Positions 42,102 through 64,000 are shown, numbered from the stretch's first letter. The stretch is DNA of 64,000 nt from Leptolyngbyaceae cyanobacterium (GCA_965263355.1 CBDHHL010000056.1:832001-896000); one strand, 5' to 3'. Notes: generated by a model not told the origin, from the letters alone. Made by a program: numbers and translations.

Positions 42102-42108
42102 AATCGAC

Positions 42109-43378: not shown

Positions 43379-43423
43379 GGATACTGAATGCTGATGAGAG
43401 ATTTTTGAATGGGGGTGCGATCG

Positions 43424-44080: not shown

Positions 44081-44094
44081 GGCATAAACCTCTT

Positions 44095-44877: not shown

Positions 44878-44911
44878 GGGATTTCTCCTTAAATTTAGAA
44901 AATCTTGAATT

Positions 44912-44927
44912 TACCTATTAGTAGGTA
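44912..44927. promoter_or_regulatory. Probable TetR operator TACCTATTAGTAGGTA
   Basis: 1 mismatch to the palindrome TACCTACTAGTAGGTA; ~35 nt upstream of the SDR start. Confidence 0.7.
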
Positions 44928-44945
44928 GGTAAATGGGCAAAAAAA

Positions 44946-46245: not shown

Positions 46246-47658
46246 CTAAAGCTTAACTAGTGTGCGCTCATCAGCATTTGTATCCATTGGGGTGTCTATT
46301 TTCCAGGTTTCAATCTCTACATCTCTCATCACACTCTCGATCTCTTCATTAGCATATCGGTGCATTAATGGATCTGAAATGGGAATTTGGTAGGCATGGG
46401 GCTGAAACAAACCATAGGGGGTGACACGATAAATCTTGTCGAAGTTGCGATAGTATCCACCCAGATCCACATAGTCCCATCCATTACGCTTCTGCAACAA
46501 TCCGTACAATGCTGAAGCTGTTATGCAGGCAAATAGATTGGAGAGAGGATTCCGTCCTTTCTGGGCAGTCAAGGGGGTCTGAGAGAAATCAATAAACCAC
46601 TGTTTCACACCATCTGGGAAGACAATATTTAGTTGGTAAACAATATTCCAACGAAAATGTTCCCGAAAGAGAGAATAACGCAATTCTTGAATAAAGGTGA
46701 CTAAATCATTTGCGATCGCATCCTCAATCGCTTCACTCATTAGTTTAATGTCATAGTTCTCAGGGTTGCCATCGACCAATTTGTCGGCAATGGCTACGGG
46801 ATAGAAATCTAACTCATTGCGATCGTCTCTGATCTGTTTAACAAAGGAGCAACCACCGGTTTGATGGTTATAGTTAGTCTGATCAAATTCAATCGAATCA
46901 CCAGGCTCTAACGGAAAGACCTTATCCTCCAAATCAGGACAAATATGTTGCACATCTTGGCAAAACTTCTCCCGAGTAACCGGAAAAACAATCTGATTCA
47001 AAAATGCACTACCATTCACATACTTAAAGGCATTGGCCCCTGGAGAAATTGCTTTAGGGTTAATCAGACTAATGTTGTATAGCAGCTGGCCATACTGATC
47101 ATAGGGAAATGCCAGACTCCTATTGTACTGATAGTTGCACTCCATCATGGGCTGCCAAGTAGCCAACAAAAAGTCAATTTGAGGATACTGGCCCAGAATA
47201 AAGGCAGTTGTATCAAGGCTCAATTCTGTATCTACGCAATTCCAGAAAACCCCTGACTCATCCTGTAGTAAAACACCAAACTCAGGTACGCGATTTTCAC
47301 TTCGGGTTGACAGGAAGTTGGTCGAACCACCAATTTCTAATTCTTGAAATTCATCAATGGCGTATATTTTCTTGTAGCCCAACTTTTTTAATGAGCCCTC
47401 GATCAATTCATCCCTGGGAATAATTACTTCCACGGTTTTAGGCAGATGGGCAAGGGAACGAATATCAAAATGATCTAAATGTTTGTGAGAGATTATAAGA
47501 ATGTCAAAATCCGGGATGTTGTCAATCAGGACATCGCGTTTAGGGCAGACATCTAAAATGCCCTCTTGATGAGGATCCCAAAGGACAGGATCCATCATAA
47601 ATTTAGCATCTTGAGTTTCGATAAAAATAGACGCATGACCAATCATGTCAATTTTCAT
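46246..47658 (-). CDS. Metallo-beta-lactamase-fold metalloenzyme with C-terminal extension
   Basis: IGHASIFIET...DP, SHKHLDHFD (HxHxDH); GGAGG SD. Confidence 0.85.
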   Translation of the reverse strand: MKIDMIGHASIFIETQDAKFMMDPVLWDPHQEGILDVCPKRDVLIDNIPDFDILIISHKHLDHFDIRSLAHLPKTVEVIIPRDELIEGSLKKLGYKKIYAIDEFQELEIGGSTNFLSTRSENRVPEFGVLLQDESGVFWNCVDTELSLDTTAFILGQYPQIDFLLATWQPMMECNYQYNRSLAFPYDQYGQLLYNISLINPKAISPGANAFKYVNGSAFLNQIVFPVTREKFCQDVQHICPDLEDKVFPLEPGDSIEFDQTNYNHQTGGCSFVKQIRDDRNELDFYPVAIADKLVDGNPENYDIKLMSEAIEDAIANDLVTFIQELRYSLFREHFRWNIVYQLNIVFPDGVKQWFIDFSQTPLTAQKGRNPLSNLFACITASALYGLLQKRNGWDYVDLGGYYRNFDKIYRVTPYGLFQPHAYQIPISDPLMHRYANEEIESVMRDVEIETWKIDTPMDTNADERTLVKL

Positions 47659-47768
47659 AATTTTTTACCTCCTAAAAAACGTGAGTTGAATCTGAATCAG
47701 ATTGCGTGATTAAGTAAAGTCAGTTGTAAATCAATGTAGAATTCTGGCCGAAAACATGCTCATCTAAA

Positions 47769-48641
47769 CTAGGCTGTGGTCGCTGTTTTCTCTAGGGTTA
47801 GCCTAGCCGCACTAATCTCAGGCATATAGGTTTGAACAACATTGTCTAGAAGGCTATCTTGGCCTTCTACCAGGGCATACTCAGCCGCTACATGATCAAT
47901 ATTGGACGCATTGATGAAATTTTCGGTCAGCGAGATTCCGGCCTCCAGATTTCTCACTTGATGCCACCATTGGCTGGGGGTGAACATAAGGTCACCAGCT
48001 TCCTGAATACAGGTATAGCCTTCAACATTTCTATATTGTGGACAGACCTCTAAATCCACATTAAAACCATCGATAGAGCCACCATTGAGATTATCCGTTT
48101 CATTGGCTGGATAAAACAACCACTCTTTTTTTCCACTCAACACAGCATTCCATGCTGACGTGCCCATTACATCACGATGCATGGGAGAACTCGTATTTTT
48201 AGCCCCAATATACATCCAGCGCAGGCTGTAGTCAGCGGCTTCACCTTGGAATAACTCTGGAGGTATCCGTCTCACCCAATTTTCAAAGTAATCGGGCACC
48301 GTATAGTCATCCAACAGCTCAGGGTAATCGCTACTAAATGTCCAGTCTGCTAAATAGTAAGGAGGCGTATCTTGGGTATTTTTTGCGTAGTCCAGATATT
48401 CAGCCAGCAAAAAATTTCGTTTATCCTCTCGATTCTTACCTCGACTGGCCACAACCTGGGTTTGACCATATCGTTGAACAAACTCTTGTCCAGTCCATTT
48501 CTGATAAGCAGGCCATTGTTTTGCCACACCACGAATCACTACCGGCTTACTCTTCAAGAGATAGTGATTGATAATTGTTGGGAAATCAGCTTTTTCTAAA
48601 ACATCAACAGGTTGTAGGGTAGGATAATTAGTCAAGTTCAT
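47769..48641 (-). CDS. JmjC/cupin-like Fe(II)/2-oxoglutarate dioxygenase
   Basis: KPVVIRG...WPAYQKW, PMHRD...SGKKEW...PSQWWHQVRN (HxD...H triad). Confidence 0.9.
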   Translation of the reverse strand: MNLTNYPTLQPVDVLEKADFPTIINHYLLKSKPVVIRGVAKQWPAYQKWTGQEFVQRYGQTQVVASRGKNREDKRNFLLAEYLDYAKNTQDTPPYYLADWTFSSDYPELLDDYTVPDYFENWVRRIPPELFQGEAADYSLRWMYIGAKNTSSPMHRDVMGTSAWNAVLSGKKEWLFYPANETDNLNGGSIDGFNVDLEVCPQYRNVEGYTCIQEAGDLMFTPSQWWHQVRNLEAGISLTENFINASNIDHVAAEYALVEGQDSLLDNVVQTYMPEISAARLTLEKTATTA

Positions 48642-48737
48642 ATCAGTAGATTTCCATCTTTATAAAAAATTACGGCTTTTCTAAGCTTGGGTGTGTAAGG
48701 GCATGCTTGCAAGGAGTTAAAAACATTTGAATCAATA

Positions 48738-50072
48738 TCACGAATTCTCACCTGTTGCAGTATCTTGCTCAACTTGCAATAAGGGAGCATGGCGATAGGC
48801 AATAGATGCAGTCATTATGGATAATCCGCCCATAATGATGAACATCAAGCCAATGCCTCGACCTGGCCCGGTTCCAATAATCTGGCCGACCCCCTCCGAC
48901 CAAGGGCCTTCAAACTCCATGGCAGGCTCTAGGATTAAGTCTACGACTGAGCCAGATGATATAGCAGTGATTGTGGCTACCGACGTGATAGCGTTGTTTA
49001 GGGCAAACACCCGGCCTTGTAATTCTGGTGCAACATATTTCTGAAAAATAACTTGAATAGAGCCATCGACAAGTGGTAACGTTGCAAGAAAAAGAAAAGC
49101 GGCCACTGCGATTAGAATTAAGGACGGTCTGACTCCGCTAGCAATTGCTTCCAATCCTCCTAAAAACATACAACCACAAATCACTGGAACTAGGCGCTCC
49201 TGACGGCTTACCCAAGTACCCATCAAAATGCCGCCCACAACTGTCCCTAACTCTGCTGTCGAGATCACAAAACCCAGGGTTTCAGTAGTGGTTAAGTTTA
49301 AAATCAGGGGAACGAACAAAATCGTTCCTACAGTCGATATGAATGCATAAACGGCTCGTACAGTAATTAAACTGAATAACCCGGTTTGGTTAACCAAGTA
49401 AGTCCATCCCTGCTTAATCGGTTGAATAAATGAATTGTTTTCACTATCTACTTCAGGCAAGGACACCTGTAGCTCTGGAATTTGGATGAGTAGAATTGGA
49501 ATAATACCGATTAGAAAGCTAACACAGTTAACCAATAGAATGCCTTGGATCTGGATGATGGTTAGGAGTAATCCAGCTGCCACTGGAGCCCCGAGCTGTG
49601 CGATCGCATCTCCCACACGAGTTAAACCACTGGCCCGGGCTAAATCTTTCGGTTCAACTAATAAGCTAACTGCAGACTTAAATGATAGGCTTTCAAATTC
49701 TGTAAATATGGCACTTAAGCACGTAAAGAGATATATGTGCCATATCTTTAAGGAACCGGTAATGAACAGGACAGCCATGGCCAAAAAGCACGACGCAGAG
49801 CCAATTTCGGAAATAACAATTATCCATCGACGGGACCAACGATCAACAACGACACCTGATAGGGGTGCCAGGAAAAAGGTTGGTAATGTTATGAATAAGA
49901 TACCAAGGGTATAAAAGTTAACCGACTCTGTAGTTTGAAGAATCCAAATATCCAGAGCAAATCTTGCCAGACAGTCGCCGATGGTGGAGACCATAGATCC
50001 TAGCCATAGGAAAACAAATGTATTCATTCCCCTTGCTGCTGGTTTTTCGGTGATGATTGATGATTGGCCCAT
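48738..50072 (-). CDS. MFS transporter (probable exporter)
   Basis: Multiple TM segments, GVVVDRWSRR motif A, ELQGRVFA, GTGPGRGIGLMF. Confidence 0.92.
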   Translation of the reverse strand: MGQSSIITEKPAARGMNTFVFLWLGSMVSTIGDCLARFALDIWILQTTESVNFYTLGILFITLPTFFLAPLSGVVVDRWSRRWIIVISEIGSASCFLAMAVLFITGSLKIWHIYLFTCLSAIFTEFESLSFKSAVSLLVEPKDLARASGLTRVGDAIAQLGAPVAAGLLLTIIQIQGILLVNCVSFLIGIIPILLIQIPELQVSLPEVDSENNSFIQPIKQGWTYLVNQTGLFSLITVRAVYAFISTVGTILFVPLILNLTTTETLGFVISTAELGTVVGGILMGTWVSRQERLVPVICGCMFLGGLEAIASGVRPSLILIAVAAFLFLATLPLVDGSIQVIFQKYVAPELQGRVFALNNAITSVATITAISSGSVVDLILEPAMEFEGPWSEGVGQIIGTGPGRGIGLMFIIMGGLSIMTASIAYRHAPLLQVEQDTATGENS

Positions 50073-50240
50073 AATTTCCTTAAACTAAGAGCAAAGAGTG
50101 AATACGTCCTCATGCTCATTTTCCCTAACTTATCTAACGTCACCTAATAGTCAGCAACTACAAATCAGCATTCATAATGATTGAGCAATTTTCCTGTCAG
50201 GGATATACCTAATTCAAGATTCCTCATAACTATTCAGCCT

Positions 50241-52202
50241 TTAAGTTGGATAATCTCCAACAATCATCCTATAAAAGTCATTATTTTTCCCAAGTTCAAT
50301 GGCTCCTTCATATGACAAGTGCCCAGCATCTCTATATAATAGGGCTGAATCAAGGTGGGTTTGACATCGCAATGAATTGCATGTCAGTTTATCGACACGG
50401 ACAACACGATAATTATCCTTGATAATATCTAACAAATCATAGGCTCTTAAGCGACTAAATCGCATCTCATCCACAGCGAAATCGCACGCATCTAAGTCTA
50501 TTCCCATCCATGCGGCGTGTTCTAAGCAGTGACCTAAATCATTGCCATTGGAAGCTGGGGGAGAAAAGACGACAGGAGTGATTCCCATTATTTCTAGCTC
50601 ATTAAGTGTATTGGTTAACTCTTTGAGAGCAATCTGAAAACCAGCATTCAAAAACTCTCCATTGCGAGACAGAAGGGTACTATTTTCTGATAAAAATCTA
50701 TTATCTAAAGGGGAGGATAGTACGGCATACTTAACTGTATTGTTTGTTTTTAACCAGTCACGAACTTTGCCGGAAAAATCAAGGCATCCTTCAGACCAGC
50801 TGATAGTCTGGTCCGGTGGCTCGAAAGATGCAATATCAAAAAAAGGAGAACAGACTCTTTTAGTCATCTGAATGATTTTTGCATCGGGATTAGATGCCAT
50901 AATCGCTGGCACTAAATGCATTGCAAACGAGTCTCCCCAAACGACAATTTCTGGCTGATCACTTGTCCTACAATCAGGCGACAGTGTGAAAGAATTGTCA
51001 CAAACATTACTCAATCCGGAACTGAGTTCTCGATTGTTTACCATGGCTTGATTAGAGGGCCCCCTATGGGTGATTCGGGCACTGAACCCACCCGTAATGT
51101 CGCCAGCCCACCCTAACAAAGCCAACAGTAACAGTCCAGCGATCGCCAATGAAGTCACTATTTTTGTTTCTACACTTTTTCTAAATGGCGTTTCTACATA
51201 CTTCCAGCTCAAATAGGCGAGGGGAAATAGCAGTACAACCAATCCAGCTAACAGTAAACTATTAGGCTCAGTTAAACTTCGATGCCTAGCAAACGCAAAA
51301 ATAGAATGATGCCAAAGATACAAACTATAGCTAATTAAACCAATCCCGACCAATATGTTCGTTCCGAGCAATTGACCAACTAAGGTCTCTGATGAAGAAA
51401 ATAAAATAATAAGCCCTGCTCCGACCGTTGGTATTAAAGCATGGAAACTAGGAAACGGAGTAGCATGATTAAACGCATAGATCGAATATCCAATCATCAG
51501 TAGACCAATCAAGCTTATGACTTCATTGATAGCTCTACGATCAAATAGAAGAGTAAATCTGGATCTTCCATATAAAAGCAAAAATGCAATAATTGCACCA
51601 ATGGCAAACTCCCAGGCTCTTGTTGGCAGAATGAAGAAGTTTGCTGAAGGATGGTGAAATGCTTCCCACTGTGATAGACCTAGACTTGTAAGCGCGATGA
51701 GCATCAAGGACGTAAATATCCAACGCTTCTGTAAGCGCCACATTAGAAGTAGAAACAGTGGAAAGAGAAGATAGTATTGTTCTTCAATGGCTAAACTCCA
51801 AGTATGTAAAAGTGGCTTAAATTCATTGCTTGTTTCCCAATATCCTGTTTCTTGCCAGAAAAAAATATTTGAAGCAAATATAGAAACTGCTATCAGGCTA
51901 CGGGAAAAGGCTTTCATGTCCCATTCTGGTAGCCAAAACCAGGCAAAAATTAGGGAAGCAAGCGTTACTAAGAATAGTGCAGGGAAAATACGCCTGATCC
52001 GTCGCTCATAGAAGTTGAGTAAGGAAAACGTGCCCTGCTCTTTCTCAGTAAAAATTATGGTTGTAATCAGATAACCACTGATAACAAAAAAGACATCTAC
52101 TCCAATAAATCCACCTCTAAAATACTGACATCCTGCATGAAACAAAATTACCGAAATCACCGAAATAGCTCTAAGGCCATCAATTTCAGGACGATATTTC
52201 AT
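50241..52202 (-). CDS. Acyltransferase-3 + SGNH domain O-acyltransferase (OafA-like)
   Basis: YRPEIDGLRA, GVDVFFVISGY, HTWSLAIEEQYY, GDSFA, DAGH. Confidence 0.92.
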   Translation of the reverse strand: MKYRPEIDGLRAISVISVILFHAGCQYFRGGFIGVDVFFVISGYLITTIIFTEKEQGTFSLLNFYERRIRRIFPALFLVTLASLIFAWFWLPEWDMKAFSRSLIAVSIFASNIFFWQETGYWETSNEFKPLLHTWSLAIEEQYYLLFPLFLLLMWRLQKRWIFTSLMLIALTSLGLSQWEAFHHPSANFFILPTRAWEFAIGAIIAFLLLYGRSRFTLLFDRRAINEVISLIGLLMIGYSIYAFNHATPFPSFHALIPTVGAGLIILFSSSETLVGQLLGTNILVGIGLISYSLYLWHHSIFAFARHRSLTEPNSLLLAGLVVLLFPLAYLSWKYVETPFRKSVETKIVTSLAIAGLLLLALLGWAGDITGGFSARITHRGPSNQAMVNNRELSSGLSNVCDNSFTLSPDCRTSDQPEIVVWGDSFAMHLVPAIMASNPDAKIIQMTKRVCSPFFDIASFEPPDQTISWSEGCLDFSGKVRDWLKTNNTVKYAVLSSPLDNRFLSENSTLLSRNGEFLNAGFQIALKELTNTLNELEIMGITPVVFSPPASNGNDLGHCLEHAAWMGIDLDACDFAVDEMRFSRLRAYDLLDIIKDNYRVVRVDKLTCNSLRCQTHLDSALLYRDAGHLSYEGAIELGKNNDFYRMIVGDYPT

Positions 52203-52359
52203 TTTTTACGCATCAGTAATGGTGAAGTTTATAAATTATAGATTTCTTATCACTAAACTTAGTTGAAAAAACTTCAATATATTGTAGCCCTGAGCACGAT
52301 ATTTTCTGTCTCCATCCCTAATTAACATGCATTTTTATCAACCTGAGAATAAGTGCAAC

Positions 52360-53256
52360 CTATTTCCTCACACTCATCCTCTTAATACCCATCTTCTTAG
52401 ATACCGGTAAGTTCATTTCTGGAATATATTTCCGCATTACGGCATCCAATGCAGTGTCACGCCCTAAAGTCAATTGATAGTAAGTAGATACAGCATCAAC
52501 ATTAGAGTGATTAATGAAGTTTTCCGTTAAGGATATGCCAGCTTCCAAATTTCTTACCTGGTGCCACCATGAGCTGGGAGTAAATACTACATCACCAGAT
52601 TCCTGAATACAGCTATACCCCATTGCTTTTTTGAACTTGGGATAGAGAGTAGCGTTCACATTAAAGCCATCAACTGGACTATTGTAACGATTCACTGGGT
52701 AAAGATTTTCAGTCTCATCGCCTGAGTAAAATAGCCAAGCTTTTTTTCCACTCAAAACAGCATTCCAAGCAGACGTATCTAATACATCACGATGCATCGG
52801 TGAACCAGTATTTTTTGCACCAATATACATCCAGCGTAGAAAGTAATCGTAATCTTTTCTCTTAAGAAGATGTGCAGGGATACGCCTTATCCAGTTTTCA
52901 AAATAATCTGGAATATCATAATCATTGATCAGTTCAGGGTAATCAGAGGCAAACCGCCAGGCAGATAAATAATAAGGACGCTCATCTGTAGTAGTTTGCA
53001 TATACTCCAAGTAATCAGAGAGTGTAAAAATTTTCTCTTCTAGCTTGGGCACATGTATCCTAGCAATAACTTGAACCTTACCATAGGTTTGGATAAACTC
53101 TGGACTTGTCCATTTTTTATAAGCAACCCATTCCTTCGCAATTCCTCGTAGTAATACAGGTTTACCCTTTAAAACATACTGCTCCATGACTGTTTGATAG
53201 TCTGGATTGTCTAAAATATCGACAGGCTGTAAGTTATCGTTTGGAGCTACATTCAT
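52360..53256 (-). CDS. JmjC/cupin-like Fe(II)/2-oxoglutarate dioxygenase, paralog of 47769-48641
   Basis: PMHRD...SGKKAW...PSSWWHQVRNLEAGISLTENF. Confidence 0.9.
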   Translation of the reverse strand: MNVAPNDNLQPVDILDNPDYQTVMEQYVLKGKPVLLRGIAKEWVAYKKWTSPEFIQTYGKVQVIARIHVPKLEEKIFTLSDYLEYMQTTTDERPYYLSAWRFASDYPELINDYDIPDYFENWIRRIPAHLLKRKDYDYFLRWMYIGAKNTGSPMHRDVLDTSAWNAVLSGKKAWLFYSGDETENLYPVNRYNSPVDGFNVNATLYPKFKKAMGYSCIQESGDVVFTPSSWWHQVRNLEAGISLTENFINHSNVDAVSTYYQLTLGRDTALDAVMRKYIPEMNLPVSKKMGIKRMSVRK

Positions 53257-53337
53257 AATAAGTGACGGGGCAAAGGAAAAACTGAGGAAGCGAGACGATT
53301 TGGTTTGAGAAATTCTTGCGCTATTACTTGAGAATAA

Positions 53338-56300
53338 TCAATTGAGGTAGGCTTGGAGCTGTTGTGCTAAAACTTTTACATGCTGAGGATCACGCATCAT
53401 AGACATGTGGTCTCCAGGTACCCAATCAAAGGTGACTTGCTGAGCTAAATCATGCCAACCCAATGTTGGGTCATCGGCCTGGTTGGCAACACCATCCTTA
53501 GCTTGCAGTAGGACTAATTCTCCGGAATAAGGTTGTGGGACATAGGTTTGTGCGGCTTGTTCATGTCCGGTTTGAACTTGAACAATACAATTTAATTGTT
53601 CTACCCCAAAGCCTGGGCTCAAGGAGATATTACGTCGCTCGGCTTCCGAGATAATGTAGGTGAGCTGATCTTCCCAGCTCATCGTGCGTAAGTGGCGATT
53701 TAACCCATTGAGTTCATCGGAGGGCAACGCAAGGTGACGACCGACGAGTTCAGCTAACAGGTCAGTCGCATCAGGAATTTGATCAACCGCCATCAAGGAG
53801 TTCACATCCATAAAAATCAGACGAGGCGGTTGTTCGCCATTACGCGTTAGTTGCTGAGCCATTTCCCAGGCAATGGTTCCTCCCAAACACCAACCCGCTA
53901 GATGGTAAGGGCCTTCAGGTTGAACTGTTTTGATCACTTGAAGGTAGTCCTTAGCCATGGTCTCAATGCTATTGTCGGCGGGTTGACCGGGTTCAAAACC
54001 GCGTGCTTCTAAACCATAGATGGGACGGTCCTGGCCCAGGTACGAGACGAGCTTTTGATAGTTCAAAACACTGCCACCACCAGGATGGATCAGGAACAGC
54101 GGTGGCAAGGTTCCCTGGGGTTGTAATGGTGTGAGCGGTGACCAAGTTGGGGGCTCACTACCCTGTTGGATGGTTTGCTGCAATAGCATGGCCTGCTGTT
54201 CAATGGTTGCTCCCTGGAATAGGGTCACCAGGGGTAGGGTATGCCCAAGCTTCTCGTGGATACGGGACATTAACGATACGGCCAGGAGAGAATGGCCTCC
54301 GAGATCAAAGAAGTCGTCTACGATGCCGATGGATTCTACCTTGAGTACCTCAGACCAAATCTGGCTGAGCTGTAACTCTAAATGGTTGCGGGGTGCAACA
54401 AATAGCCGATCGGATGGAGGCTGATATTCTGGAGCGGGTAGAGCCTTGCGGTTGATTTTGCCGTTAGGGGTTAATGGTAAGGCATCCAAATATACGAAGG
54501 CATTTGGCACCATGTAGTCTGGTAGTTGTTCTTTGAGAAACTCTCGTAGGGAGATCGGGGAAATATCTTCATTAGAGGTCACTACGTAGACCACTAACTG
54601 CTTATTGCTGGGGTCATCGGCTCGGACGATTGCGATCGCTTCCCGCACCTGAGGATGTTTCTGAAGTGTAGCTTCCAGTTCACCCAGTTCAATCCGGAAC
54701 CCTCGCAGCTTAACCTGTTGGTCACGACGTCCCAAGAATTCTACATTGCCATCTGCTTGATAACGGGCCAGATCGCCAGTGCAGTATAACCGTCCTGGGC
54801 CAAAGGGATTGCGGATAAACTTCTCAGCCGTCAGCTGAGGACGATGTAAATACCCCAGACTCAGACCCGCGCCCCCAATATATAGGTCTCCAGTCACGCC
54901 CACGGGCACGGGCTGCATGGCCGGATCGAGAACATATAGCTGGGTATTGGCAAAGGGCCGACCAATGGGAACGGCCACATCGGCAGCATTATCATCTCCC
55001 TGGAGTTCAAAATAACAGCTATCAATAGTTGCTTCGGTAACGCCGTAGGAATTGATCAATCGCGTTTGCTCGCCACAGATGCGGCGGAACTTCTGGTATT
55101 CAGCCATGGACCAGAAATCAGAGCCCACCACTAAAACCCTCATAAAATTAAGGTTTTGGTGGCTGTTTTCCAGGTAGTTAGCCAGTTGTCTAAAGACAGC
55201 GGGGACAAATTCTGCACAGTCCACAGCTTCTCGGCAGATCAGACTGTAAAGCTGTTCGGCATCCAGCAGAATTTCCCGAGGACAGAGCACCAGCTTGGCA
55301 CCGGAACAGAGGGCTCGTACCCAATCTCCAGTAAATACATCAAAGGAGAAGCTGGCCATTTGTAAATGGCTGGAAGTACGCTGCTTGAGCTGGTACGCAT
55401 CTTCCCAGGCAAAATAGGCGTTTACCAAGCTGCGATGAGCCACCGCCACCCCCTTGGGTTGGCCCGTTGAGCCAGAGGTGTAGATGACATAGGCACGGCT
55501 ATCTTGGGCCACGGGTGCCACGGGATTCCCCACGGGGGCATGGACAATATCTTGATGGGTATCTAAACAAATCACCTGGGCATCCTGCTGCGGCAGACGA
55601 TCTAGACCAGATTTTTGCGTAATCAACACCGAGACAGCGGCATCCTGCAGCATGTAAGCAATACGTTCCTGGGGATACCGAATGTCCAGGGGAAGGTAGG
55701 CCGCGCCCACTTTGAGAATGGCTAAGAGACTGACAAGTAGTGCTGGAGAACGTTCCAGATAGATACCCACCAGGGTGTCGCTACCGACACCCTGGGCCTG
55801 AAGAGTATGGGCTAGCTGATTAGCTTGGGCATTTAACGCCTGATAGGTTAGCGTGTCCCCATTAAAAACAACGGCAATGGCATCTGGCTGGCGTTCAACC
55901 TGTTGTTCAAACAGTTGGTGAATACACAAATCTTGGGCATAGGTGACCTGGGTGTCGTTCCATGACACCAGGACTTGCTGCCGTTCCGCCTGACTGAGCA
56001 AGGGTAGCTGGGTAACCTGTAACTGGGGCTGAGCTAAAATTCCAGCTAGAAGAATTTGGAAATGGCGGGTTAGGCGCTCAATAGTGTCTGGCTTGAATAA
56101 ATCGGTACTGTATTCCCAAATGCCTTCAATGCCAGCCTCACTTTCTGTCATGGTGAGGGTGAGGTCAAACATCGCCGTGACAGTTTCAGGCTCCAGGGTG
56201 GTCATGGTGAGACCAGGCAACTCTAAGGCCGCATTGGATGAGCTGTGCCAGTCAAACATCACCTGAAACAGGGGAGAATGGCTCAGATTACGATCGGGTT

Positions 56301-59300
56301 GTACCGCCTCGACAACTTGCTCAAAGGGAACATCCTGATGGCTGTACCCCCCTAAGGCTGACTGCCGCACTTGTTCCAGGAGGTCTGTAAAGGTGAGACT
56401 GTCGGTGAGCTGAGATCGCAACGCTAGCGTATTGACAAAAAAGCCAATCAACCCTTCAATTTCAGACCGGTTACGGTTAGCAATGGGGGTGCCCACGACA
56501 ATGTCATCTTGACCACTGTAGCGATGCAATAACAGACTAAAGGCCGCAAACAGCACCATAAATAGAGTTGTTCCTGTGGTCTGAGCCAGTCGTTTGAGCT
56601 GTGGACATAGCTCTGGGGAAAGAACAAATGTTTGCTGTTGTCCCCGATAGGTTTGCTGAGCCGGTCGAGGATAGTCTGTGGGTAACTCCAATAGAGCAGG
56701 TGCATCGGTTAGATAGTCCTGCCAGTAGGCCAGTTGCCGTTGTAGTACATCGCCCTGCAACCACTGGCGCTGCCAATGGGCAAAATCTCTATATTGAAGC
56801 GTTAACCCTGGCAATGGTGACGATTGCCCCTGGGTAAAGGCACTATAAAGTGTTGTTAGCTCCTGAATCAGGATGCCCATGGACCATTCGTCGGCCACAA
56901 TGTGGTGCATCGTGGCTAACAGAATATGGTCCTCAGCCGCAACCTTTAACAAAACGGTTCGTAGCAGCGGAGCCTTGGCCAGATCAAAGGGGGTGTGGGC
57001 ATTCTCCGCTAGCTGCTGCTGAATACGACGCGTCTGTTCATTGACCTCCACTGTCTGTAGGTCAACCAGCTCCAGGTCGAGGGACACCGCTGGCTCAATC
57101 CACTGCATCGGTGTCCCCCCATGATTGCGAAAATAGGTCCGCAATATTTCGTGACGTTGCACCAGTTCATCTAGGGCCTGCCCCAGCGATGGGATATCCA
57201 ACGGTCCCTGGAGTTGAATGGCCAGGGGCATGTTATACGTCGAATTGGGACCCTCTAGCTGATCTAAAAACCACAATCGTTCCTGGGCCCAGCTGAGGGG
57301 CAGTGGCTGGTCAGCGACATGCGGAATCGGAACAATGGGAGGGGCGACCTGTTCTTGATCGCCGGTTAAAGTGTCGTGAATTAAGGTGGCTAGTTCTGCA
57401 GGGGTGGGGGCTTCGAATAGGGCACGGAGAGGAATTTCAGTCTGAAACGTCTGCCGTAGTCTAGAAACAACCTGAGTTGCCAAAAGAGAATGTCCACCCA
57501 ATTCAAAGAAACTATCATAAGCACCCACCAATGGTGCCTGAGTATCCTGGCTAAGAACGATGGCAAAACTATCTGCAATTGCCTGCTCAATGGGAGTCCT
57601 TGGAACCACCATATCTGCCGTCTGACTTACGTCTACCGTGGGGGTTGGCAAAGCACGGCGATCGACTTTGCCATTGGGTGTCAGCGGTAATTTTTCTAAG
57701 AATGTAAAGGCTGAAGGCACCATATGGGCCGGTAAGGTCTGCTTCAAAAACTGTCGCAGGTCCTTCGCAGAGAGGGCAGGCTCGGTTGGCACCACATAGG
57801 CTGCCAGATAGCTGGACCCTGGCTGATCGTCCCGAGCCACAACAATGGCACCACTGACTTGGGGATGGCCTAATAGGACTGCCTCTAGCTCTCCCAACTC
57901 AATCCGGAAGCCCCGAATTTTGACCTGATTATCTGAGCGGCCTAAAAATTCAATATTGCCATCCGCTCGGTAGCAGGCTAAATCCCCGGTCTTATATAAA
58001 CGCCCTTCACCAAACGGATTGGGAATAAACCGTTCTGCGGTGAGATCATCACGGTGTAAATATCCACGGGCTAAGCCTGCTCCACCAATATGCAGTTCGC
58101 CCACAACCCCCAAGGGCACAGGCTGCGCCCGTTGATCCAACACGTGTAATTGGATATTAGAGAACGGACGACCAATGGGCACCGCCATGTCCTGGGGCCA
58201 TGCCATGGCAGTATCCCCCGGTGCTTCAAAGTAGCAACTGTCAATAGTTGCTTCTGTGACACCATAGGAATTGATCAAACGGGTTTGAGGTCCACAAATT
58301 TGCCGGAATCGCTGATATTCCCCCATCAGCCAGAAATCAGACGCCACTACCAAAACAGTCATAAAGTCCAGGGTCTGTTCTGTAGTATCTAGATAACTCA
58401 CCAGTTCTCTAAATACAGCGGGGACAAACTCTGCACAATCCACAGCTTCCCGACACATAAGCTGATACAAGAGCGCAGATTCCAGCAAAATTTCCCGAGG
58501 ACACAGCACAAGCTTTGCCCCAGAGCAAAGGGCCCGTACCCAGTCTCCGGTAAATACATCAAAGGAGAAACTGGCCATCTGTAAATGACTGGATGTCTGC
58601 TCCCTCAAATGATACGCCGCTTCCCAGGCAAAGTAAGCGTTGACCAGACTACGATGAGCAACCGCAACCCCCTTTGGTTGACCGGTGGAGCCCGAGGTGT
58701 AAATAACGTAGGCCAGATTATCCTTAGTTGTTGATAGGCTGAGATTCTCAGCAGGATGCTCCAAGCGCTGCTGGTTATCATCGATTAACAGAACAGGGGC
58801 ATTAGCGTGAGTTACAGACGCGGGGAGCGCATCTAAACAAGATCGCTGACTAATTAGGACGGTTACTCCTGCATTCTCCAGCATGTAAGCAATGCGCTCT
58901 TTGGGATAGCTGCTTTCCAGAGGCAAGTAAGCTCCCCCCGCTTTTAGGACGGCCAAAACACTGATGAGCAAATCGGGGGAACGCTCCAGGCAAATACCCA
59001 CCATGGCATCGGGGCCAACCCCAACGGATTGAAGTTCATGGGCTAACTGGTTTGCTTGCTGATTTAATTGTTGATAGGTTAACGTTCTCTCCCCTGAAAC
59101 TAGCGCGATGGCCTCGGGGGTGCGCTCAACCTGTTGTTCAAACAGCTGATGGATACCCTCTGTTGGCGAATAGCTGAGGGTGGTGTCGTTCCAGCTGATA
59201 AACTGTTGCCGTTCCGCATCCGTAAGCAATGGAAACTGGCTGATATTGGCGGTGGGGTTGGCTAAAATGCCTGCCAACAGGGTCTCAAAATGTTGGGTTA

Positions 59301-62300
59301 AACGAATAATTGTGGCTTGTTCAAACAGGTCGGTATTGTACTCCCAAATACCCACTATCTTTGCGTCTTCCTCAACCATGGTGAGGGTCAGGTCGAACTT
59401 AGAGGTGACATCATTGGTATGTACAAAGTTCATCGTCAACCCTAATACATCCATGGATCTATTCGCAGCGCTTTCCCAATCAAACATCACCTGGAAGAGC
59501 GGCGAGTAGCTCAGGTTACGTTCCGGTCGTAGGGCTTCTACCACTTGCTCAAAGGGAACATCCTGATGACCATAGCTACCCAGAGCGCCTTGGCGAATTT
59601 GTTCCAAGATATCTAGGAAGGAAAGATTGTTGGAGAATTGCGATCGCAACACCAACGTATTAACAAAAAAGCCAATTAATTGTTCAACCTCTGTGCGATT
59701 ACGATTCGCAATGGGGGTCCCAACCGCAATATCCTCCTGACCGCTATATCGATGGAGTAAGAGGCTAAACGTAGCAAGCATTACCATAAATGGCGTTGCG
59801 CCCGTTGACTCTGCCAGTTGCTTGAAAGGCTGTATCAACTCCTGAGCCAGAGTGAACTGATAGGTTTGTCCCCGATAGGTTTGCACCGCTGGTCGGGGGT
59901 GATCCGTAGGTAGTTCTAGCAGGGGGGGCAAATCGGCCAAATAGTCACGCCAATAGTCCAACTGCTGTTGTAAAACCTCATCTCGCAACCACTGCCGTTG
60001 CCACTGGGCAAAGTCCGCATACTGAATGGTTAATGGCGGTAGGGGGGAGGGTTGACCCTGGGCAAAGGCTCGATAAAGGGTCTGTAACTCCCGAATAATG
60101 ATCTCATCAGACCATGCGTCGGACACAATATGGTGTCGAATAATCAACAGAAGATAGGCTTCAGGCGCTTGCTGCACAAGTCTTACCCGTATTAGCGGCG
60201 GTGCTGACAAGTCAAAAGGCGTTTGATTTTCCTCAGTAATCTGCTGCTGGAGCCGCGTTTCTAACTCAGTAGGGGATACCCCTTGCAGATCCACGAACTG
60301 TAACTGAAATGGAACGGTTGGCAGAATAACTTGTATGGGAGAAGCACTATCCTCGGATTGAAAGCAGGTACGCAGCACTTCATGGCGCTGAATAATTTCC
60401 TCAAACGCCTGGTTGAGTGAATCCACATCCAGAGGACCTTGAACCTGTAAAGCCGTGGACATGTTGTATGTGGTACTGGGACCCTCAAGTTGATTTAGGA
60501 ACCATAGACGCTCCTGTGCCCAACTTAGGGGTACGGGGGTATCTGCATCTCTCGGAATCGGAACAATTGGCGGTGCGGTTTCTACTAACTCCTCGGTTAG
60601 CACCTCGTCAATCAGCAAACTTAGCTCCATCACAGTGGGAGCCTCAAACAGGGTGCGTAGGGGAATCTCCAGTTGAAAGGCCTGTCTGAGCCTAGAAATT
60701 GCCTGGGTTGCCAGGAGAGAATTGCCGCCTAGTTCAAAAAAGTTTTGCTGGATGCTAACCGCATCAAAACCCAGAACATTCGCAAAGATATCAGCCGTTG
60801 TCTGTTCTGTTGGATTAGAGGGAGCTACAAAACTTACGTCGTTCTCAAGCTGCGTCGGTGGTAGTGGGAGGGCACGCTGATCAACTTTGCCATTGGGGGT
60901 GAGGGGCAACCCATCAAGCTGCACAAAGGCTGACGGCATCATGTAATTTGGCAGCTGGACCTTGAGAAAGTTGCGGAGATCGTTCGGATTAATCTGCTCG
61001 TCCGAACTAACGAAATAGGCAACCAATCGCTGGTTGCCGGGAGTATCTTCTCGAACAATGGCAACACTTTGTTGAATTCGAGGATAGGCCGATACAGCTG
61101 CCTCAATTTCCCCAAGTTCGATACGAAACCCCCGAATTTTGACTTGATTATCAATACGACCTAAAAATTCCAGATTCCCATCTGGAAGATAGCGAGCCAG
61201 ATCTCCAGTTTTGTAAAGACGCCCAGAATCAAAGGGATTATCAATAAATCGCTCGGCAGTTATGTCAGGGCGATTTAAATAACCGCGAGCCAACCCGGCA
61301 CCGCCCACATGAATTTCTCCAGTAACACCAATGGGTACGGGCTGTAACTGAGAGTTCAGTAGATAAACCTGAACATTACGAATCGGTTTACCAATTGAGA
61401 TTTCTTGTGCTTGAGTCGTGTCTGAATCAGGCGGTGTTAGAAAACAACTGGTAGCAACAATGGTCACTTCTGTGGGACCGTAATTATTAACCAACAGAGG
61501 GCGGTCTAATCCGTTCTGACTCCAACGATCAGCAATAGTCTTGTGCCACCGTCGCACATGTTCTAACCGTGCCTTTTCCCCGCCTAAAATCACTAGCCTT
61601 AGGAGCTTGGGGATCTCCCATACAGCCAGTGCTAATTCATCAACTAATTGATGCCAGTAGGCAGTAGGCAAATCTAGAATGCTTAGTTGCCACTGCTGGC
61701 AGGCTTGCATCAGTCCGGGACCAGACGTTAGGAATTCATCGGTGCGTAGAATCAGAGTGGCACCACAGGTCAGACCGGTATAGATTTCCTCTGCGGAGGC
61801 GTCAAAGCTGATGGAGGCAAATTGGAGAATACGGTCATTTTCATTGATGCCATATTCGGTACGTAGCGATTGGGAAATCTCTAGCAGGGCTCCATGGGGC
61901 GTCATTACCCCCTTGGGTTGTCCGGTTGAACCGGAGGTATAAATAATGTAAACGAGATTTTCCAGGCTTACTCCACTGGTGGGATTGTTGGTTGGTTGGG
62001 CTGCGATCGCAGCCCAATCTGTATCCAGACAAACAACCTGTGATTGATGGTCTGGCAAACCAGCTACCAATGATTCCTGAGTCACCAGCACAGATACAGC
62101 TGAATCAGAGAGGATATACGCCGAGCGCTCCCTGGGATAAGTTGGATCTAACGGCACATAAGCCCCACCGGCCTTAAGAATGCCAAAGATACCCACCATC
62201 ATATTGAGGGAGCGCTCAATAGAAATGCCCACCAGCACATCGGGCCCCACTCCCAAACCCCGTAAATGATGGGCCAGCTGATTCGCCAGACTGTTTAACT

Positions 62301-63807
62301 CTGCATACGTTAGATGCTCCTGGCCAAATTCTATCGCTAACTTATCAGGTGTTCGCTTTACTTGAGATTCAAACAATTCATGGACACACAGCCTTTCGGG
62401 ATAAATTTGCGCCGTGTTATTCCAGTCCACCAATAGCTGATGCCGTTCTGCTTGAGTCAGTAATGGCATCTCTCCCACAGGCAACTGCGGTGTTTCTAGA
62501 ACCGCTTCCAATAACATCGAAAAATGGTTCACCATACGGCGAACAGTCTCTGCCTTAAACAAATCAACGTTATATTCCCAAATCCCTGTTAACCCCTCTG
62601 GGGTTTCTTGCATCGTCAAAGTCAGATCAAACTTCGATGTGGTCTCTTCAAATTCAAGAGGAGATAGGGTTAGCCCCGGCAGCTCAAGATTACCTTCAGG
62701 TGCATTTTGCAGGACAAACATGACCTGAACCAAAGGACTGTAACTCGGTGAACGCTCCACATTCAGAGCATCCACAACATGAGAGAAGGGCAAATCCTGA
62801 TGCACATAAGCATCAAGGGTCATCTGACGAACCTGGCGCAAAAGCTCTTCAAACGTTGAGTTCTCATCAATTTGTAGCCGTAGCGCTAAAGTATTCGCAA
62901 AAAAGCCGATGAGAGATTCAAATTCCTTCCGAGTACGGTTTGCAATCGGAGAACCAATCACCATATCTTTCTGGCCACTGTAACGGCATAGCAGAGTACC
63001 GAATACAGCAAGCAGTAACATAAACAGAGTAGTCTTCTGTTGTTGAGCCAACTGTTTTAAGCGTTGGCTCAAATCCATCCCCAGATTAAACGTAACAGTC
63101 TGCCCCTGGCCTGTTTGCACTGCAGGGCGAGGGTGATCGGTTGGTAGCTCAAGTAAAGTAGGAGCCTCAGTCAACTGGTTGGTCCAATAGTTTAATAATT
63201 TGTCAAGGGTCGGTCCTAATAAAAGTTCTCGCTGCCAATCAGCAAAGTCGCCATATTGAATGGCTAATTCTGGCAAAGTCGGTAATTTGCCTTGGCAGTA
63301 AGCTGGATAAAGAACAGAGATTTCCTTCACCATTACGCCAGTTGACCAAGCATCGGCGATAATATGATGTAACGTGAGCAAGAGTACGTGTTCAGTTGGC
63401 TCTAGACGCAGCAACTGAACTCGCACCAAATACGACTGACCCAAGTCAAAACCAGTCGTTTCCTCTTCCATCGCCCGTCGCTTCACTTCAGTGGCGGCAG
63501 CAGCTGGTTCTAGAGAACTCAAATCAATCAGTGGAAAATCTAACCAGGCTGTGGGAGAAATAACCTGAACCGCGACATTATCAATAACTTCAATGGTTGT
63601 CCGTAGAACTTCATGACGTTCTTGAATGGTCTGGATAGACTGCCTCAAAGCCTCAACATTCAGCTCGCCCTGCAGACGAATTACGGAAGAAATATTGTAG
63701 GCTGCACTCTCTGGATCCATTTGGTAAAGAATCCAGAGACGCTCCTGGGTATACGATAGCGGGTAAATAAAAATTTCTTCCGATAGGGGCGAGACTGTCA
63801 TGACCAA
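53338..63807 (-). CDS. Trimodular NRPS C-A-T-C-A-T-C-A-T-TE
   Basis: C motifs HHIIADAWS, HHIVSDAWS, HHIVADEWS; three YTSGSTGQPKG A domains; T motifs GGNSL, GGHSL, GGHSL; TE GWCLGG...GDH; in-frame ATG at 63801. Confidence 0.97.
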   Translation of the reverse strand: MVMTVSPLSEEIFIYPLSYTQERLWILYQMDPESAAYNISSVIRLQGELNVEALRQSIQTIQERHEVLRTTIEVIDNVAVQVISPTAWLDFPLIDLSSLEPAAAATEVKRRAMEEETTGFDLGQSYLVRVQLLRLEPTEHVLLLTLHHIIADAWSTGVMVKEISVLYPAYCQGKLPTLPELAIQYGDFADWQRELLLGPTLDKLLNYWTNQLTEAPTLLELPTDHPRPAVQTGQGQTVTFNLGMDLSQRLKQLAQQQKTTLFMLLLAVFGTLLCRYSGQKDMVIGSPIANRTRKEFESLIGFFANTLALRLQIDENSTFEELLRQVRQMTLDAYVHQDLPFSHVVDALNVERSPSYSPLVQVMFVLQNAPEGNLELPGLTLSPLEFEETTSKFDLTLTMQETPEGLTGIWEYNVDLFKAETVRRMVNHFSMLLEAVLETPQLPVGEMPLLTQAERHQLLVDWNNTAQIYPERLCVHELFESQVKRTPDKLAIEFGQEHLTYAELNSLANQLAHHLRGLGVGPDVLVGISIERSLNMMVGIFGILKAGGAYVPLDPTYPRERSAYILSDSAVSVLVTQESLVAGLPDHQSQVVCLDTDWAAIAAQPTNNPTSGVSLENLVYIIYTSGSTGQPKGVMTPHGALLEISQSLRTEYGINENDRILQFASISFDASAEEIYTGLTCGATLILRTDEFLTSGPGLMQACQQWQLSILDLPTAYWHQLVDELALAVWEIPKLLRLVILGGEKARLEHVRRWHKTIADRWSQNGLDRPLLVNNYGPTEVTIVATSCFLTPPDSDTTQAQEISIGKPIRNVQVYLLNSQLQPVPIGVTGEIHVGGAGLARGYLNRPDITAERFIDNPFDSGRLYKTGDLARYLPDGNLEFLGRIDNQVKIRGFRIELGEIEAAVSAYPRIQQSVAIVREDTPGNQRLVAYFVSSDEQINPNDLRNFLKVQLPNYMMPSAFVQLDGLPLTPNGKVDQRALPLPPTQLENDVSFVAPSNPTEQTTADIFANVLGFDAVSIQQNFFELGGNSLLATQAISRLRQAFQLEIPLRTLFEAPTVMELSLLIDEVLTEELVETAPPIVPIPRDADTPVPLSWAQERLWFLNQLEGPSTTYNMSTALQVQGPLDVDSLNQAFEEIIQRHEVLRTCFQSEDSASPIQVILPTVPFQLQFVDLQGVSPTELETRLQQQITEENQTPFDLSAPPLIRVRLVQQAPEAYLLLIIRHHIVSDAWSDEIIIRELQTLYRAFAQGQPSPLPPLTIQYADFAQWQRQWLRDEVLQQQLDYWRDYLADLPPLLELPTDHPRPAVQTYRGQTYQFTLAQELIQPFKQLAESTGATPFMVMLATFSLLLHRYSGQEDIAVGTPIANRNRTEVEQLIGFFVNTLVLRSQFSNNLSFLDILEQIRQGALGSYGHQDVPFEQVVEALRPERNLSYSPLFQVMFDWESAANRSMDVLGLTMNFVHTNDVTSKFDLTLTMVEEDAKIVGIWEYNTDLFEQATIIRLTQHFETLLAGILANPTANISQFPLLTDAERQQFISWNDTTLSYSPTEGIHQLFEQQVERTPEAIALVSGERTLTYQQLNQQANQLAHELQSVGVGPDAMVGICLERSPDLLISVLAVLKAGGAYLPLESSYPKERIAYMLENAGVTVLISQRSCLDALPASVTHANAPVLLIDDNQQRLEHPAENLSLSTTKDNLAYVIYTSGSTGQPKGVAVAHRSLVNAYFAWEAAYHLREQTSSHLQMASFSFDVFTGDWVRALCSGAKLVLCPREILLESALLYQLMCREAVDCAEFVPAVFRELVSYLDTTEQTLDFMTVLVVASDFWLMGEYQRFRQICGPQTRLINSYGVTEATIDSCYFEAPGDTAMAWPQDMAVPIGRPFSNIQLHVLDQRAQPVPLGVVGELHIGGAGLARGYLHRDDLTAERFIPNPFGEGRLYKTGDLACYRADGNIEFLGRSDNQVKIRGFRIELGELEAVLLGHPQVSGAIVVARDDQPGSSYLAAYVVPTEPALSAKDLRQFLKQTLPAHMVPSAFTFLEKLPLTPNGKVDRRALPTPTVDVSQTADMVVPRTPIEQAIADSFAIVLSQDTQAPLVGAYDSFFELGGHSLLATQVVSRLRQTFQTEIPLRALFEAPTPAELATLIHDTLTGDQEQVAPPIVPIPHVADQPLPLSWAQERLWFLDQLEGPNSTYNMPLAIQLQGPLDIPSLGQALDELVQRHEILRTYFRNHGGTPMQWIEPAVSLDLELVDLQTVEVNEQTRRIQQQLAENAHTPFDLAKAPLLRTVLLKVAAEDHILLATMHHIVADEWSMGILIQELTTLYSAFTQGQSSPLPGLTLQYRDFAHWQRQWLQGDVLQRQLAYWQDYLTDAPALLELPTDYPRPAQQTYRGQQQTFVLSPELCPQLKRLAQTTGTTLFMVLFAAFSLLLHRYSGQDDIVVGTPIANRNRSEIEGLIGFFVNTLALRSQLTDSLTFTDLLEQVRQSALGGYSHQDVPFEQVVEAVQPDRNLSHSPLFQVMFDWHSSSNAALELPGLTMTTLEPETVTAMFDLTLTMTESEAGIEGIWEYSTDLFKPDTIERLTRHFQILLAGILAQPQLQVTQLPLLSQAERQQVLVSWNDTQVTYAQDLCIHQLFEQQVERQPDAIAVVFNGDTLTYQALNAQANQLAHTLQAQGVGSDTLVGIYLERSPALLVSLLAILKVGAAYLPLDIRYPQERIAYMLQDAAVSVLITQKSGLDRLPQQDAQVICLDTHQDIVHAPVGNPVAPVAQDSRAYVIYTSGSTGQPKGVAVAHRSLVNAYFAWEDAYQLKQRTSSHLQMASFSFDVFTGDWVRALCSGAKLVLCPREILLDAEQLYSLICREAVDCAEFVPAVFRQLANYLENSHQNLNFMRVLVVGSDFWSMAEYQKFRRICGEQTRLINSYGVTEATIDSCYFELQGDDNAADVAVPIGRPFANTQLYVLDPAMQPVPVGVTGDLYIGGAGLSLGYLHRPQLTAEKFIRNPFGPGRLYCTGDLARYQADGNVEFLGRRDQQVKLRGFRIELGELEATLQKHPQVREAIAIVRADDPSNKQLVVYVVTSNEDISPISLREFLKEQLPDYMVPNAFVYLDALPLTPNGKINRKALPAPEYQPPSDRLFVAPRNHLELQLSQIWSEVLKVESIGIVDDFFDLGGHSLLAVSLMSRIHEKLGHTLPLVTLFQGATIEQQAMLLQQTIQQGSEPPTWSPLTPLQPQGTLPPLFLIHPGGGSVLNYQKLVSYLGQDRPIYGLEARGFEPGQPADNSIETMAKDYLQVIKTVQPEGPYHLAGWCLGGTIAWEMAQQLTRNGEQPPRLIFMDVNSLMAVDQIPDATDLLAELVGRHLALPSDELNGLNRHLRTMSWEDQLTYIISEAERRNISLSPGFGVEQLNCIVQVQTGHEQAAQTYVPQPYSGELVLLQAKDGVANQADDPTLGWHDLAQQVTFDWVPGDHMSMMRDPQHVKVLAQQLQAYLN

Positions 63808-63837: not shown

Positions 63838-63999
63838 TTAAATTTGAGCTTCGAGCACCATTTCGGGATTTGAACTTTCAATATCAATTGAATTTACTGA
63901 GGCAAATTCCTGAGCGAGAAGTGTCAATGGATCTAGAAAACTGCGTCGTTGGCCATCACCGTTTTGAGAGAATATCCCATGGTCAGCAAATCGGCTTAG
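63838..63999 (-). CDS. 3' end of an upstream co-oriented gene (partial)
   Basis: Open frame from the window edge: LSRFADHGIFSQNGDGQRRSFLDPLTLLAQEFASVNSIDIESSNPEMVLEAQI*, ending ~30 nt before the NRPS. Confidence 0.6.
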   Translation of the reverse strand, partial: LSRFADHGIFSQNGDGQRRSFLDPLTLLAQEFASVNSIDIESSNPEMVLEAQI

Positions 64000-64000
64000 C

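Follow-up and report, generated by a model that had tools for sequence, protein, structure and literature searches.

A cysteine-type terminal thioesterase in a cyanobacterial peptide synthetase and a candidate rule for macrolactam ring position

Introduction

Terminal thioesterase (TE) domains with a cysteine rather than a serine nucleophile account for about 2% of known TEs (PMC13288461), and the examples characterised in the papers cited here and below (ObiF1, SulM, MacB, PmxB and BulbE) all cyclise their substrates. We analysed such a TE at the end of a trimodular non-ribosomal peptide synthetase (NRPS) encoded in a 64,000-nucleotide stretch from a Leptolyngbyaceae cyanobacterium (GCA_965263355.1 CBDHHL010000056.1:832001-896000; hereafter, the window). 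A first-pass annotation had likened this TE to ObiF1 and SulM and proposed release by unusual cyclisation, either as a beta-lactone from a beta-hydroxylated terminal residue or as a lactam through the side-chain amine of ornithine (Orn); the closer precedents MacB/PmxB, BulbE and AB3403 were missing from it. On the basis of module patterns in related clusters, we suggest that the enzyme may form a small macrolactam on the third-last residue.

In ObiF1 (obafluorin beta-lactone) and SulM (sulfazecin beta-lactam), the catalytic Asp follows strand beta-7 (position II), and both enzymes group with type II TEs. ObiF1 has Gly1173 at Cys+27 (that is, 27 residues after the nucleophile) and its authors found an EntF-like triad incompatible with activity; SulM combines a Gln-Cys-Asn motif with a last module of the 2,3-diaminopropionate (Dap) type. 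MacB (C89/D116; PMC13288461) and BulbE (Cys961/Asp988/His1097, position I; PMC11536411) have the Asp at Cys+27 and are N-acylating macrocyclases whose C-to-S mutants (C89S in MacB) shift to hydrolysis, which is the main outcome with native substrates. MacB and PmxB (macolacin, polymyxin) form a macrolactam through a diamino-acid side-chain amine and close a seven-residue ring (PMC13288461), and BulbE (bulbiferamide) forms a 15-atom macrolactam, natively on a Trp indole nitrogen, and also takes an Orn amine. Thioesters are far more reactive than oxoesters toward amines and similar toward water (PMC11536411), and Cys TEs are under development as cyclisation catalysts. Further facts for these comparisons come from PMC11298585, PMC6668435, PMC11792885, PMC8402340, PMC9564503, PMC3992020, PMC12426817, PMC10510592, PMC12628792 and bioRxiv 10.64898/2026.07.24.740629.

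A position-I Cys-His-Asp thioesterase

The NRPS, with its condensation (C), adenylation (A) and peptidyl carrier (T) domains, and the residues that matter for the TE are the following.

53338..63807, minus strand: trimodular NRPS of 3489 aa, C-A-T-C-A-T-C-A-T-TE (3 C, 3 A, 3 carrier and 1 TE domains)
53341..54123, minus strand: type I TE domain, NRPS residues 3229-3489 (Pfam PF00975, E 9e-29)
53887..53889, minus strand: Cys3307, nucleophile, TGT codon, in PYHLAGWCLGG (translated frame and alignment)
53806..53808, minus strand: Asp3334 of IFMD, Cys+27, position I, likely triad acid (alignment and AlphaFold model)
53494..53496, minus strand: Asp3438 of LQAKD, Cys+131, probably not the triad acid (alignment and AlphaFold model)
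53407..53409, minus strand: His3467 of VPGDH, Cys+160, triad base (conserved without exception in the 37 rows of alignment A1 and the 10 rows of A3)

The cysteine nucleophile read by the first-pass annotation (TGT at 53889-53887, in GWCLG) is a real feature of the locus. Contigs of sequencing runs X1 and X2, which are possibly the window's own source, show 0 differences over 53300-54400, and a single 251-base contig of run X6, from a different study, covers 53656-53906 with 0 differences across the codon. GWCLGG is also kept in P0003 (TE 93% identical) and in a Symploca TE (70% identical); because contigs from other runs and both homologues keep the Cys, the codon is not a sequencing error. 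The substitution alone is a known, uncommon feature and no surprise, and the caution that Cys by itself is not proof of strained-ring chemistry was well placed. Among TEs resembling the window TE, the Cys type is commoner than among known TEs (17 of 134 TE alignments and 66 of 421 in a larger set, both sets being query-biased).

Alignments and an AlphaFold model of the domain (pLDDT 92.5) support a Cys-His-Asp triad that includes the His of VPGDH, as had been proposed. Of the two Asp candidates put forward at the same time, Asp3334 is likely to be the acid and Asp3438 probably is not, because position I is acidic throughout the clade described below (D/E in 19 of the 19 Cys rows listed), whereas the later site is Ala, Arg or Gln in some members; 248 of 347 Ser TEs carry D/E at this later site, which is therefore not diagnostic. 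In the model, Asp3334 (residue 106 of the domain) directly follows strand beta-6 (101-105), and Asp3438 lies two residues past strand beta-7 (199-208).

The closest match of the window TE in both sequence (E 6e-31, GWCFGG) and structure (TM 0.84; Z 28.5, rmsd 2.3, 251 aligned, 29% identity) is AB3403 of Acinetobacter baumannii (PDB 4zxh/4zxi), which also combines Cys with a position-I Asp. Unlike the window NRPS, AB3403 comprises a single termination module, and as its product is undefined, the likeness gives no chemistry. RifR scores Z 21.1, and ObiF1 ranks 46th among the 50 structure entries listed (Z 20.8, rmsd 2.9, 214 aligned, 18% identity); SulM is not among the PDB matches listed and hence has no structural score, which does not amount to an exclusion. 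ObiF1 and SulM share with the window TE the Cys nucleophile and the alpha/beta hydrolase fold, yet ObiF1 has Gly where the window has Asp3334, and SulM has Gln-Cys-Asn where the window has Trp-Cys-Leu and a Dap-type (mode 3) last A domain where the window has DVGEVGSIDK (mode 2). On the features examined, the window TE appears to stand outside the ObiF1/SulM group, and the kinship suggested in the first-pass annotation is not supported; the structural comparison favours AB3403, and the trees described below were built without ObiF1 and SulM.

The window TE shares with the position-I Cys-His-Asp cyclases the Cys, the Asp at Cys+27, the His after strand beta-8 and the place of a C-terminal type I TE; a side-chain nitrogen nucleophile in its substrate is present by code prediction, from three diamino-type A domains. 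MacB-TE and PmxB-TE resemble it further as acidic enzymes acting on cationic substrates (30 D/E versus 15 K/R in the window TE). They differ from it in that their ring runs from 2,4-diaminobutyrate (Dab) 4 to residue 10, their terminal residue is Leu and they come from Paenibacillus. BulbE-TE shares the position-I Asp, and differs in its native indole nucleophile and a second lid. By this analogy, for which MacB/PmxB and BulbE were likened by residue numbers, triad spacing and published chemistry rather than by aligned sequence, the window TE would work like MacB/PmxB and BulbE and be built like AB3403.

A lineage with a diamino-type third-last module

In a FastTree phylogeny (161 of the 421 TEs used), the window TE falls in a 21-tip clade (support 0.99) with 19 Cys; in an IQ-TREE phylogeny of 145 rows it falls in a 24-row clade (SH-aLRT 99; 21 Cys, 2 Ser and 1 Phe) that stands beside a 5-row Cys group inside a 33-row group (SH-aLRT 92). 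Cys and Ser states change 6 times on the IQ-TREE tree, compared with approximately 39 times with shuffled labels. MacB and BulbE were likewise left out of both trees. These comparisons place the window TE in a cyanobacterial lineage, here called GWC. GTDB scans of 401, 389 and 401 genomes and JGI metagenomes (best 80 of 373) yielded a single close orthologue, in Symploca (G001), and no counterpart of the window's upstream NRPS. The Symploca contigs C19 and C89 overlap by 93 bases. Contig C50, which has a fatty acyl-AMP ligase (FAAL) start and a sulfotransferase nearby, was dropped as a part of that cluster, as it does not overlap C19 and seems to be disrupted. At approximately 3600-3950 of L033 (G001:C50), a mode-3 A domain of the FAAL-started NRPS is broken by a short remnant, which we take to resemble the end of an ornithine-cyclodeaminase-family gene. 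A separate Cys lineage (P0010, P0014, P0138, P0145, P0150, P0151 and P0174) has GYCFGG and Asn at Cys+27; these TE-like domains are internal to NRPS proteins, where they come after a first module of Val/Ile type, and most of the proteins have a second, C-terminal TE.

When a polyketide synthase (PKS) module is counted as one position, the third-last module is of diamino type in all 17 readable Cys clusters of the clade, compared with 6 of 48 Ser controls (5 of 31 proteins with at least three A domains and 1 of 17 readable Ser clusters, on our reading). The pattern was first noticed in ten clusters (window, Symploca, P0004, P0006, P0007/L062, L063, G245, two in G327, and G262) and in the seven readable clusters fetched once the rule had been formulated (L212-L217, L220) the third-last module was of that type in every case; the 20 later loci included 11 Cys clusters, of which 3 repeated earlier rows, 1 was broken and 7 were counted. 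The count leaves out P0003 (a near-copy of the window), L219 (broken), L209-L211 (clusters counted already) and P0126, P0139, P0149, P0179, P0216, L061, L157 and L162 (lacking upstream context), as well as the Ser controls L232, L241 and L248 (too few modules). Because BLAST-derived specificity codes can misplace position 9, those of the clade clusters and the 31 protein controls were re-anchored on motifs, whereas those of the 17 Ser-cluster controls come from BLAST alignments.

The other positions vary: the last module is diamino in 11 of the 17 clusters and the second-last in 3. Because six clusters (P0004, P0006, P0007, G262, L212 and L220) end in a non-diamino module, a lactam on the terminal residue cannot be the general reaction of the lineage. 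L218 and L221, which lie within the clade but have reverted to Ser, have third-last codes of Asn and Thr type, and the Symploca orthologue keeps a Lys-type module (65% identical) at the same place, with a different last module (DIWQVTADDK). The G498 cluster has a mode-3 code at the third-last place and adjoins PALP and ornithine-cyclodeaminase-family genes, the usual Dap-making pair. Cys TEs outside the clade do not follow the pattern (0 of 2), so the rule does not extend to Cys TEs in general.

Several clusters of the lineage are of interest in their own right. Orphan hybrids of the form X-Y-(Lys/Orn)-PKS-Lys-TE(Cys) (L141/L142 in G245:C2, L143/L144 in G327:C114, and L213-L217) occur in the Nostocaceae group and other cyanobacteria, with a major facilitator superfamily (MFS) gene after the TE in the two that were checked; we know of no product for them. 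L063 (2-10780), a polycationic analogue of the window cluster, encodes an NRPS that ends in a Cys TE and has three identical Lys-type modules (DTEDIGTVVK, three times); an MFS gene comes next. Permuted lipopeptide clusters (L209-L211, L218, L221 and L257-L263, in G436, G498, G460, G502 and G500) place the TE-bearing NRPS before the FAAL starter and occur in Cys and Ser versions side by side, a natural pair differing in the nucleophile; three of these, read end to end, have two DARHFSLMVK modules, a McyF-like racemase, a PhyH-type dioxygenase and ABC exporters. In Symploca (L031/L032 and L030; G001 C19 and C89), the Cys TE, which has no SulM motifs, follows a SulA3-like mode-3 (Dap/Dab) module, and JmjC and NodU-like carbamoyltransferase genes lie beyond the MFS gene; beta-lactam or carbamoyl-Dap chemistry is worth considering for this cluster.

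Candidate namalide-type clusters

Three four-module ureido clusters of the form A-T-C-A-T-E / C-A-T / C-A-T-TE, in which E is an epimerisation domain, end in a Cys TE of the GWC lineage.

G262:C157:103000-142999 (L147/L148): ureido cluster with Cys TE
G327:C100:42000-81999 (L145/L146): ureido cluster with Cys TE
G698:C103:1-15999 (L212): ureido cluster with Cys TE

The starter C domain of the G262 cluster shares 65-70% identity with its counterparts in five AptA-type genes from four genomes and at most 51% with others. As anabaenopeptins close their ring on the epsilon-amine of D-Lys, D-Lys is the expected ring nucleophile here as well. Six-module anabaenopeptin-type clusters end differently: the TE was captured in three of four, and all three have Ser in GYSSGC, are 27-29% identical to the window TE and are unrelated to the Cys TE. 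The apt clusters also have the ureido starter A-T-C-A-T-E, whereas the window NRPS has no such starter and domain calls over 53338-63807 found no epimerase domain. Namalides have a three-residue ring, the size predicted for the window product, and have been proposed to arise by module skipping in apt clusters; a 2021 review reports that no exclusive namalide cluster had turned up in the known producers. We consider the three ureido clusters to be candidates for dedicated namalide-type clusters; the literature searched (mostly open-access main texts) describes no dedicated namalide cluster.

Predicted substrates and ring closure

The three A domains of the window NRPS are all of diamino-acid type, the first in mode 1 and the others in mode 2 by the scheme of PMC12042044.

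60928..62400, minus strand: A domain 1, motif-anchored code DAEDIGNIVK, predicted Lys (Arg possible), third-last residue
57658..59160, minus strand: A domain 2, code DVGEVASIDK, binding mode 2, predicted Orn or Dab
54439..55911, minus strand: A domain 3, code DVGEVGSIDK, binding mode 2, predicted Orn, terminal residue

After re-anchoring, the first code ends in IVK rather than ITK. In its pocket region, A domain 1 shares 52-54% identity with three of the four anabaenopeptin D-Lys domains compared and 46% with the fourth (codes D[TA]EDIGSVIK), and 40-41% with types that have D[VT]ENIGAITK, which we take to be Arg. The published AptA Lys code is DTEQIGSII. The first residue is thus likely to be Lys, and Arg is possible because the closest solved A domain is ApnA A1. 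The third code is one position off the Orn code DVGEIGSIDK, which agrees with the ornithine-type terminal module noted in the first pass.

Taking these points together, we propose that the peptidyl chain, with L-Lys, Orn or Dab, and Orn as its last residues, would pass from the third carrier to Cys3307 as a thioester, and that the epsilon-amine of the module-1 Lys would attack this thioester to give a 13-atom cyclo[Lys-Orn-Orn] lactam on an N-terminal tail. Cys would favour ring closure over hydrolysis because a thioester is far better with amines and about equal with water. We regard this product, a 13-membered Lys(epsilon)-Orn-Orn macrolactam joining the Lys side chain to the terminal Orn carbonyl, as an evenly balanced prediction. 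The earlier expectation of a cyclising release, probably through an amine, is retained, with the third-last residue a likelier nucleophile than the terminal Orn given the module pattern of the relatives, the Ser revertants, the ureido clusters and the Lys-type module of Symploca. Cyanochelin B and C were ruled out as the product, as both end in a reduced terminus, and a lead towards aeruginoguanidine yielded no pertinent literature.

Gene neighbourhood

The genes around the NRPS may supply the rest of the molecule and its tailoring.

63838..64000, minus strand: 3'-terminal part of the gene for a McyF-like Asp/Glu racemase (P0267, 264 aa; McyF E 3e-37), 30 bp ahead of the NRPS
52360..53256, minus strand: JmjC/cupin-8 Fe-2OG oxygenase 1, HxD...H motif, JMJD6-like (E 2e-26)
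50241..52202, minus strand: acyltransferase-3 plus SGNH membrane acyltransferase (domain search), cluster membership uncertain
48738..50072, minus strand: MFS exporter (domain search; a 64% identical gene follows the Symploca TE)
47769..48641, minus strand: JmjC oxygenase 2 (domain search), 56% identical to oxygenase 1
46246..47658, minus strand: metallo-beta-lactamase (MBL)-fold protein, 470 aa, weakly CmlA-like (E ~1e-4, N-terminal 110 aa only)

The racemase gene is the only upstream gene recovered; homologues 53-58% identical occur in four of five genomes tested, and none was found in G001 (Symploca). Three of the homologues share a contig with a related cluster and come immediately after an NRPS whose last module is DARHFSLMVK. 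In Symploca, the orthologous NRPS is preceded by a DARHFAFLVK module and an Asp/Asn beta-hydroxylase-family gene, and the first C domain of the window NRPS is of the elongating type, 70% identical to the Symploca one that follows the upstream NRPS. By analogy, since the racemase, the DARHF modules of related clusters and the Symploca C domain all point this way, the window probably holds the end of a longer assembly line with a D-Asp-type residue. Upstream genes would supply the N-terminal part, probably acylated; the JmjC oxygenases and the MBL-fold protein may act as hydroxylases and the MFS protein as the exporter.

The five downstream genes lie on the NRPS strand with gaps of 81-168 bp, and related MFS genes follow several further TEs of the clade. 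The acyltransferase had no match among the related loci compared, and the MBL-fold query had none in five genomes; the latter belongs to an unnamed widespread family (Atlas score 0.98) and is possibly a tailoring oxygenase. The NRPS has a G+C content of 50% and the flank one of 46.5%, whereas the five genes (46246-53256) have 39-45%, a difference that may reflect separate acquisition. Farther away, an ordinary cyanobacterial chemotaxis-like operon (1-8907; Hpt, MCP, CheW and response regulators) and a TetR-SDR-ChrR cupin-isochorismatase-ABM-pirin group (40295-45518) have no tie to the NRPS.

Alternative modes of release

The main rival, which we hold to be unlikely, is a C-terminal six-membered Orn delta-lactam (3-amino-piperidin-2-one) formed by the delta-amine of the terminal Orn itself. 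It is in keeping with the Orn-type terminal code, the 11 of 17 clade clusters that end in a diamino-type module, the Dap/Dab-type code at the end of the Symploca orthologue and the speed of six-membered lactam closure. The six clusters with a non-diamino end, which include the sister group P0004/P0006/P0007, speak against it, as does the Symploca orthologue, which would need a 4- or 5-atom ring where the third-last rule gives equal rings; so easy a closure would also leave the retention of Cys unexplained. A larger ring on an upstream nucleophile (a fatty acid with a hydroxy or amino group, or some further diamino acid), or one on the module-2 amine, is decidedly improbable in our judgement: the elongating-type first C domain with its Symploca counterpart, the FAAL/PKS-started lipopeptides among the sister clusters and the seven-residue ring of MacB and PmxB would suit it, whereas the PKS genes of the sister clusters show no aminotransferase motif (motif scan; Pfam on one gene), the ureido clusters offer no upstream nucleophile beyond D-Lys and the second-last module is so rarely diamino. 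Least probable by far is a strained ring as in ObiF1 or SulM, either a beta-lactone formed on a beta-hydroxylated last residue or else a beta-lactam. The Cys nucleophile, an Asp 29 residues ahead of the His (30 in ObiF1 and SulM), two JmjC oxygenases and a CmlA-like protein that could beta-hydroxylate, and the SulA3-like mode-3 code at the end of the Symploca orthologue are what can be said for it; the position-I Asp, in light of the inactivity of EntF-like triads in ObiF1, the lack of Gln-Cys-Asn, a terminal code of mode 2 (Orn type) rather than Dap and the structural scores of ObiF1 and AB3403 argue against it, and no sulfotransferase was found among the six genes after the NRPS (the upstream part lies outside the window). 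The beta-lactone of the first-pass annotation in particular is not supported.

It is also conceivable, if improbable, that the TE hydrolyses its substrate to the linear acid or transfers it to a free amine, with the Cys inherited and the pattern reflecting the descent of clusters rich in basic residues. In favour of this, no product has been defined for AB3403, the solved TE most like that of the window, the correlation is not independent given the kinship of the clusters, and an acidic TE suits any cationic substrate; on the other side, the characterised Cys TEs named in the introduction all cyclise, the last two modules vary in the clade while the third-last is constant, and ureido clusters of such architecture are expected to be cyclic. 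Several points weigh against the proposed third-last macrolactam itself. The 17 clusters amount to only approximately six sub-lineages with shared ancestry, several being near-copies, and for this reason the Fisher p of 2e-5 is overstated; for 7 of the 17 the fit depends on counting a PKS module as a single position, and these are non-discriminating because they also end in Lys. The third-last module is likewise diamino in L223, which belongs to the wider group and has a Ser TE (1 of 5 readable Ser clusters). The Glu-at-position-3 rule admits Arg, so that module 1 could carry a guanidine, a poor nucleophile, and a free Orn delta-amine on a thioester readily closes a six-membered lactam. BulbE C731S still uses a primary amine, and namalides made from apt clusters by module skipping would mean that a Ser TE closes the same ring; because of both, Cys is not required for amine cyclisation. 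The upstream assembly line lies outside the window, and the literature searched contains no product or assay for any member of the clade.

Implications

At a little short of even confidence, we tentatively propose that the GWC lineage is an undescribed family of Cys TEs specialised in closing isopeptide macrolactams of 10 to 13 atoms on the residue third from the end. The literature searched holds no account of the lineage or of the third-last rule; the supplements of the SulM and MacB papers contain TE trees that possibly bear on it. What the module patterns offer is a testable, sequence-level rule for ring position within a known enzyme class. The window TE would come off the lists used in beta-lactone and beta-lactam mining, as the combination of Cys and a position-I Asp is indicative of amide macrocycles.

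Chemical closure of three-residue macrolactams is difficult, and the lineage, if the proposal is true, would provide a portable small-ring macrocyclase. Genome mining would also gain a rule for a class of small-ring peptides that has so far lain hidden in cyanobacteria and that covers polycationic Lys-Orn-Orn lipopeptides, Lys-ketide-Lys hybrids and dedicated namalide-type ureido clusters. Ring position would become readable from module order, which makes the regiochemistry of these TEs testable with short synthetic thioesters and would render the structures of orphan cyanobacterial clusters predictable.

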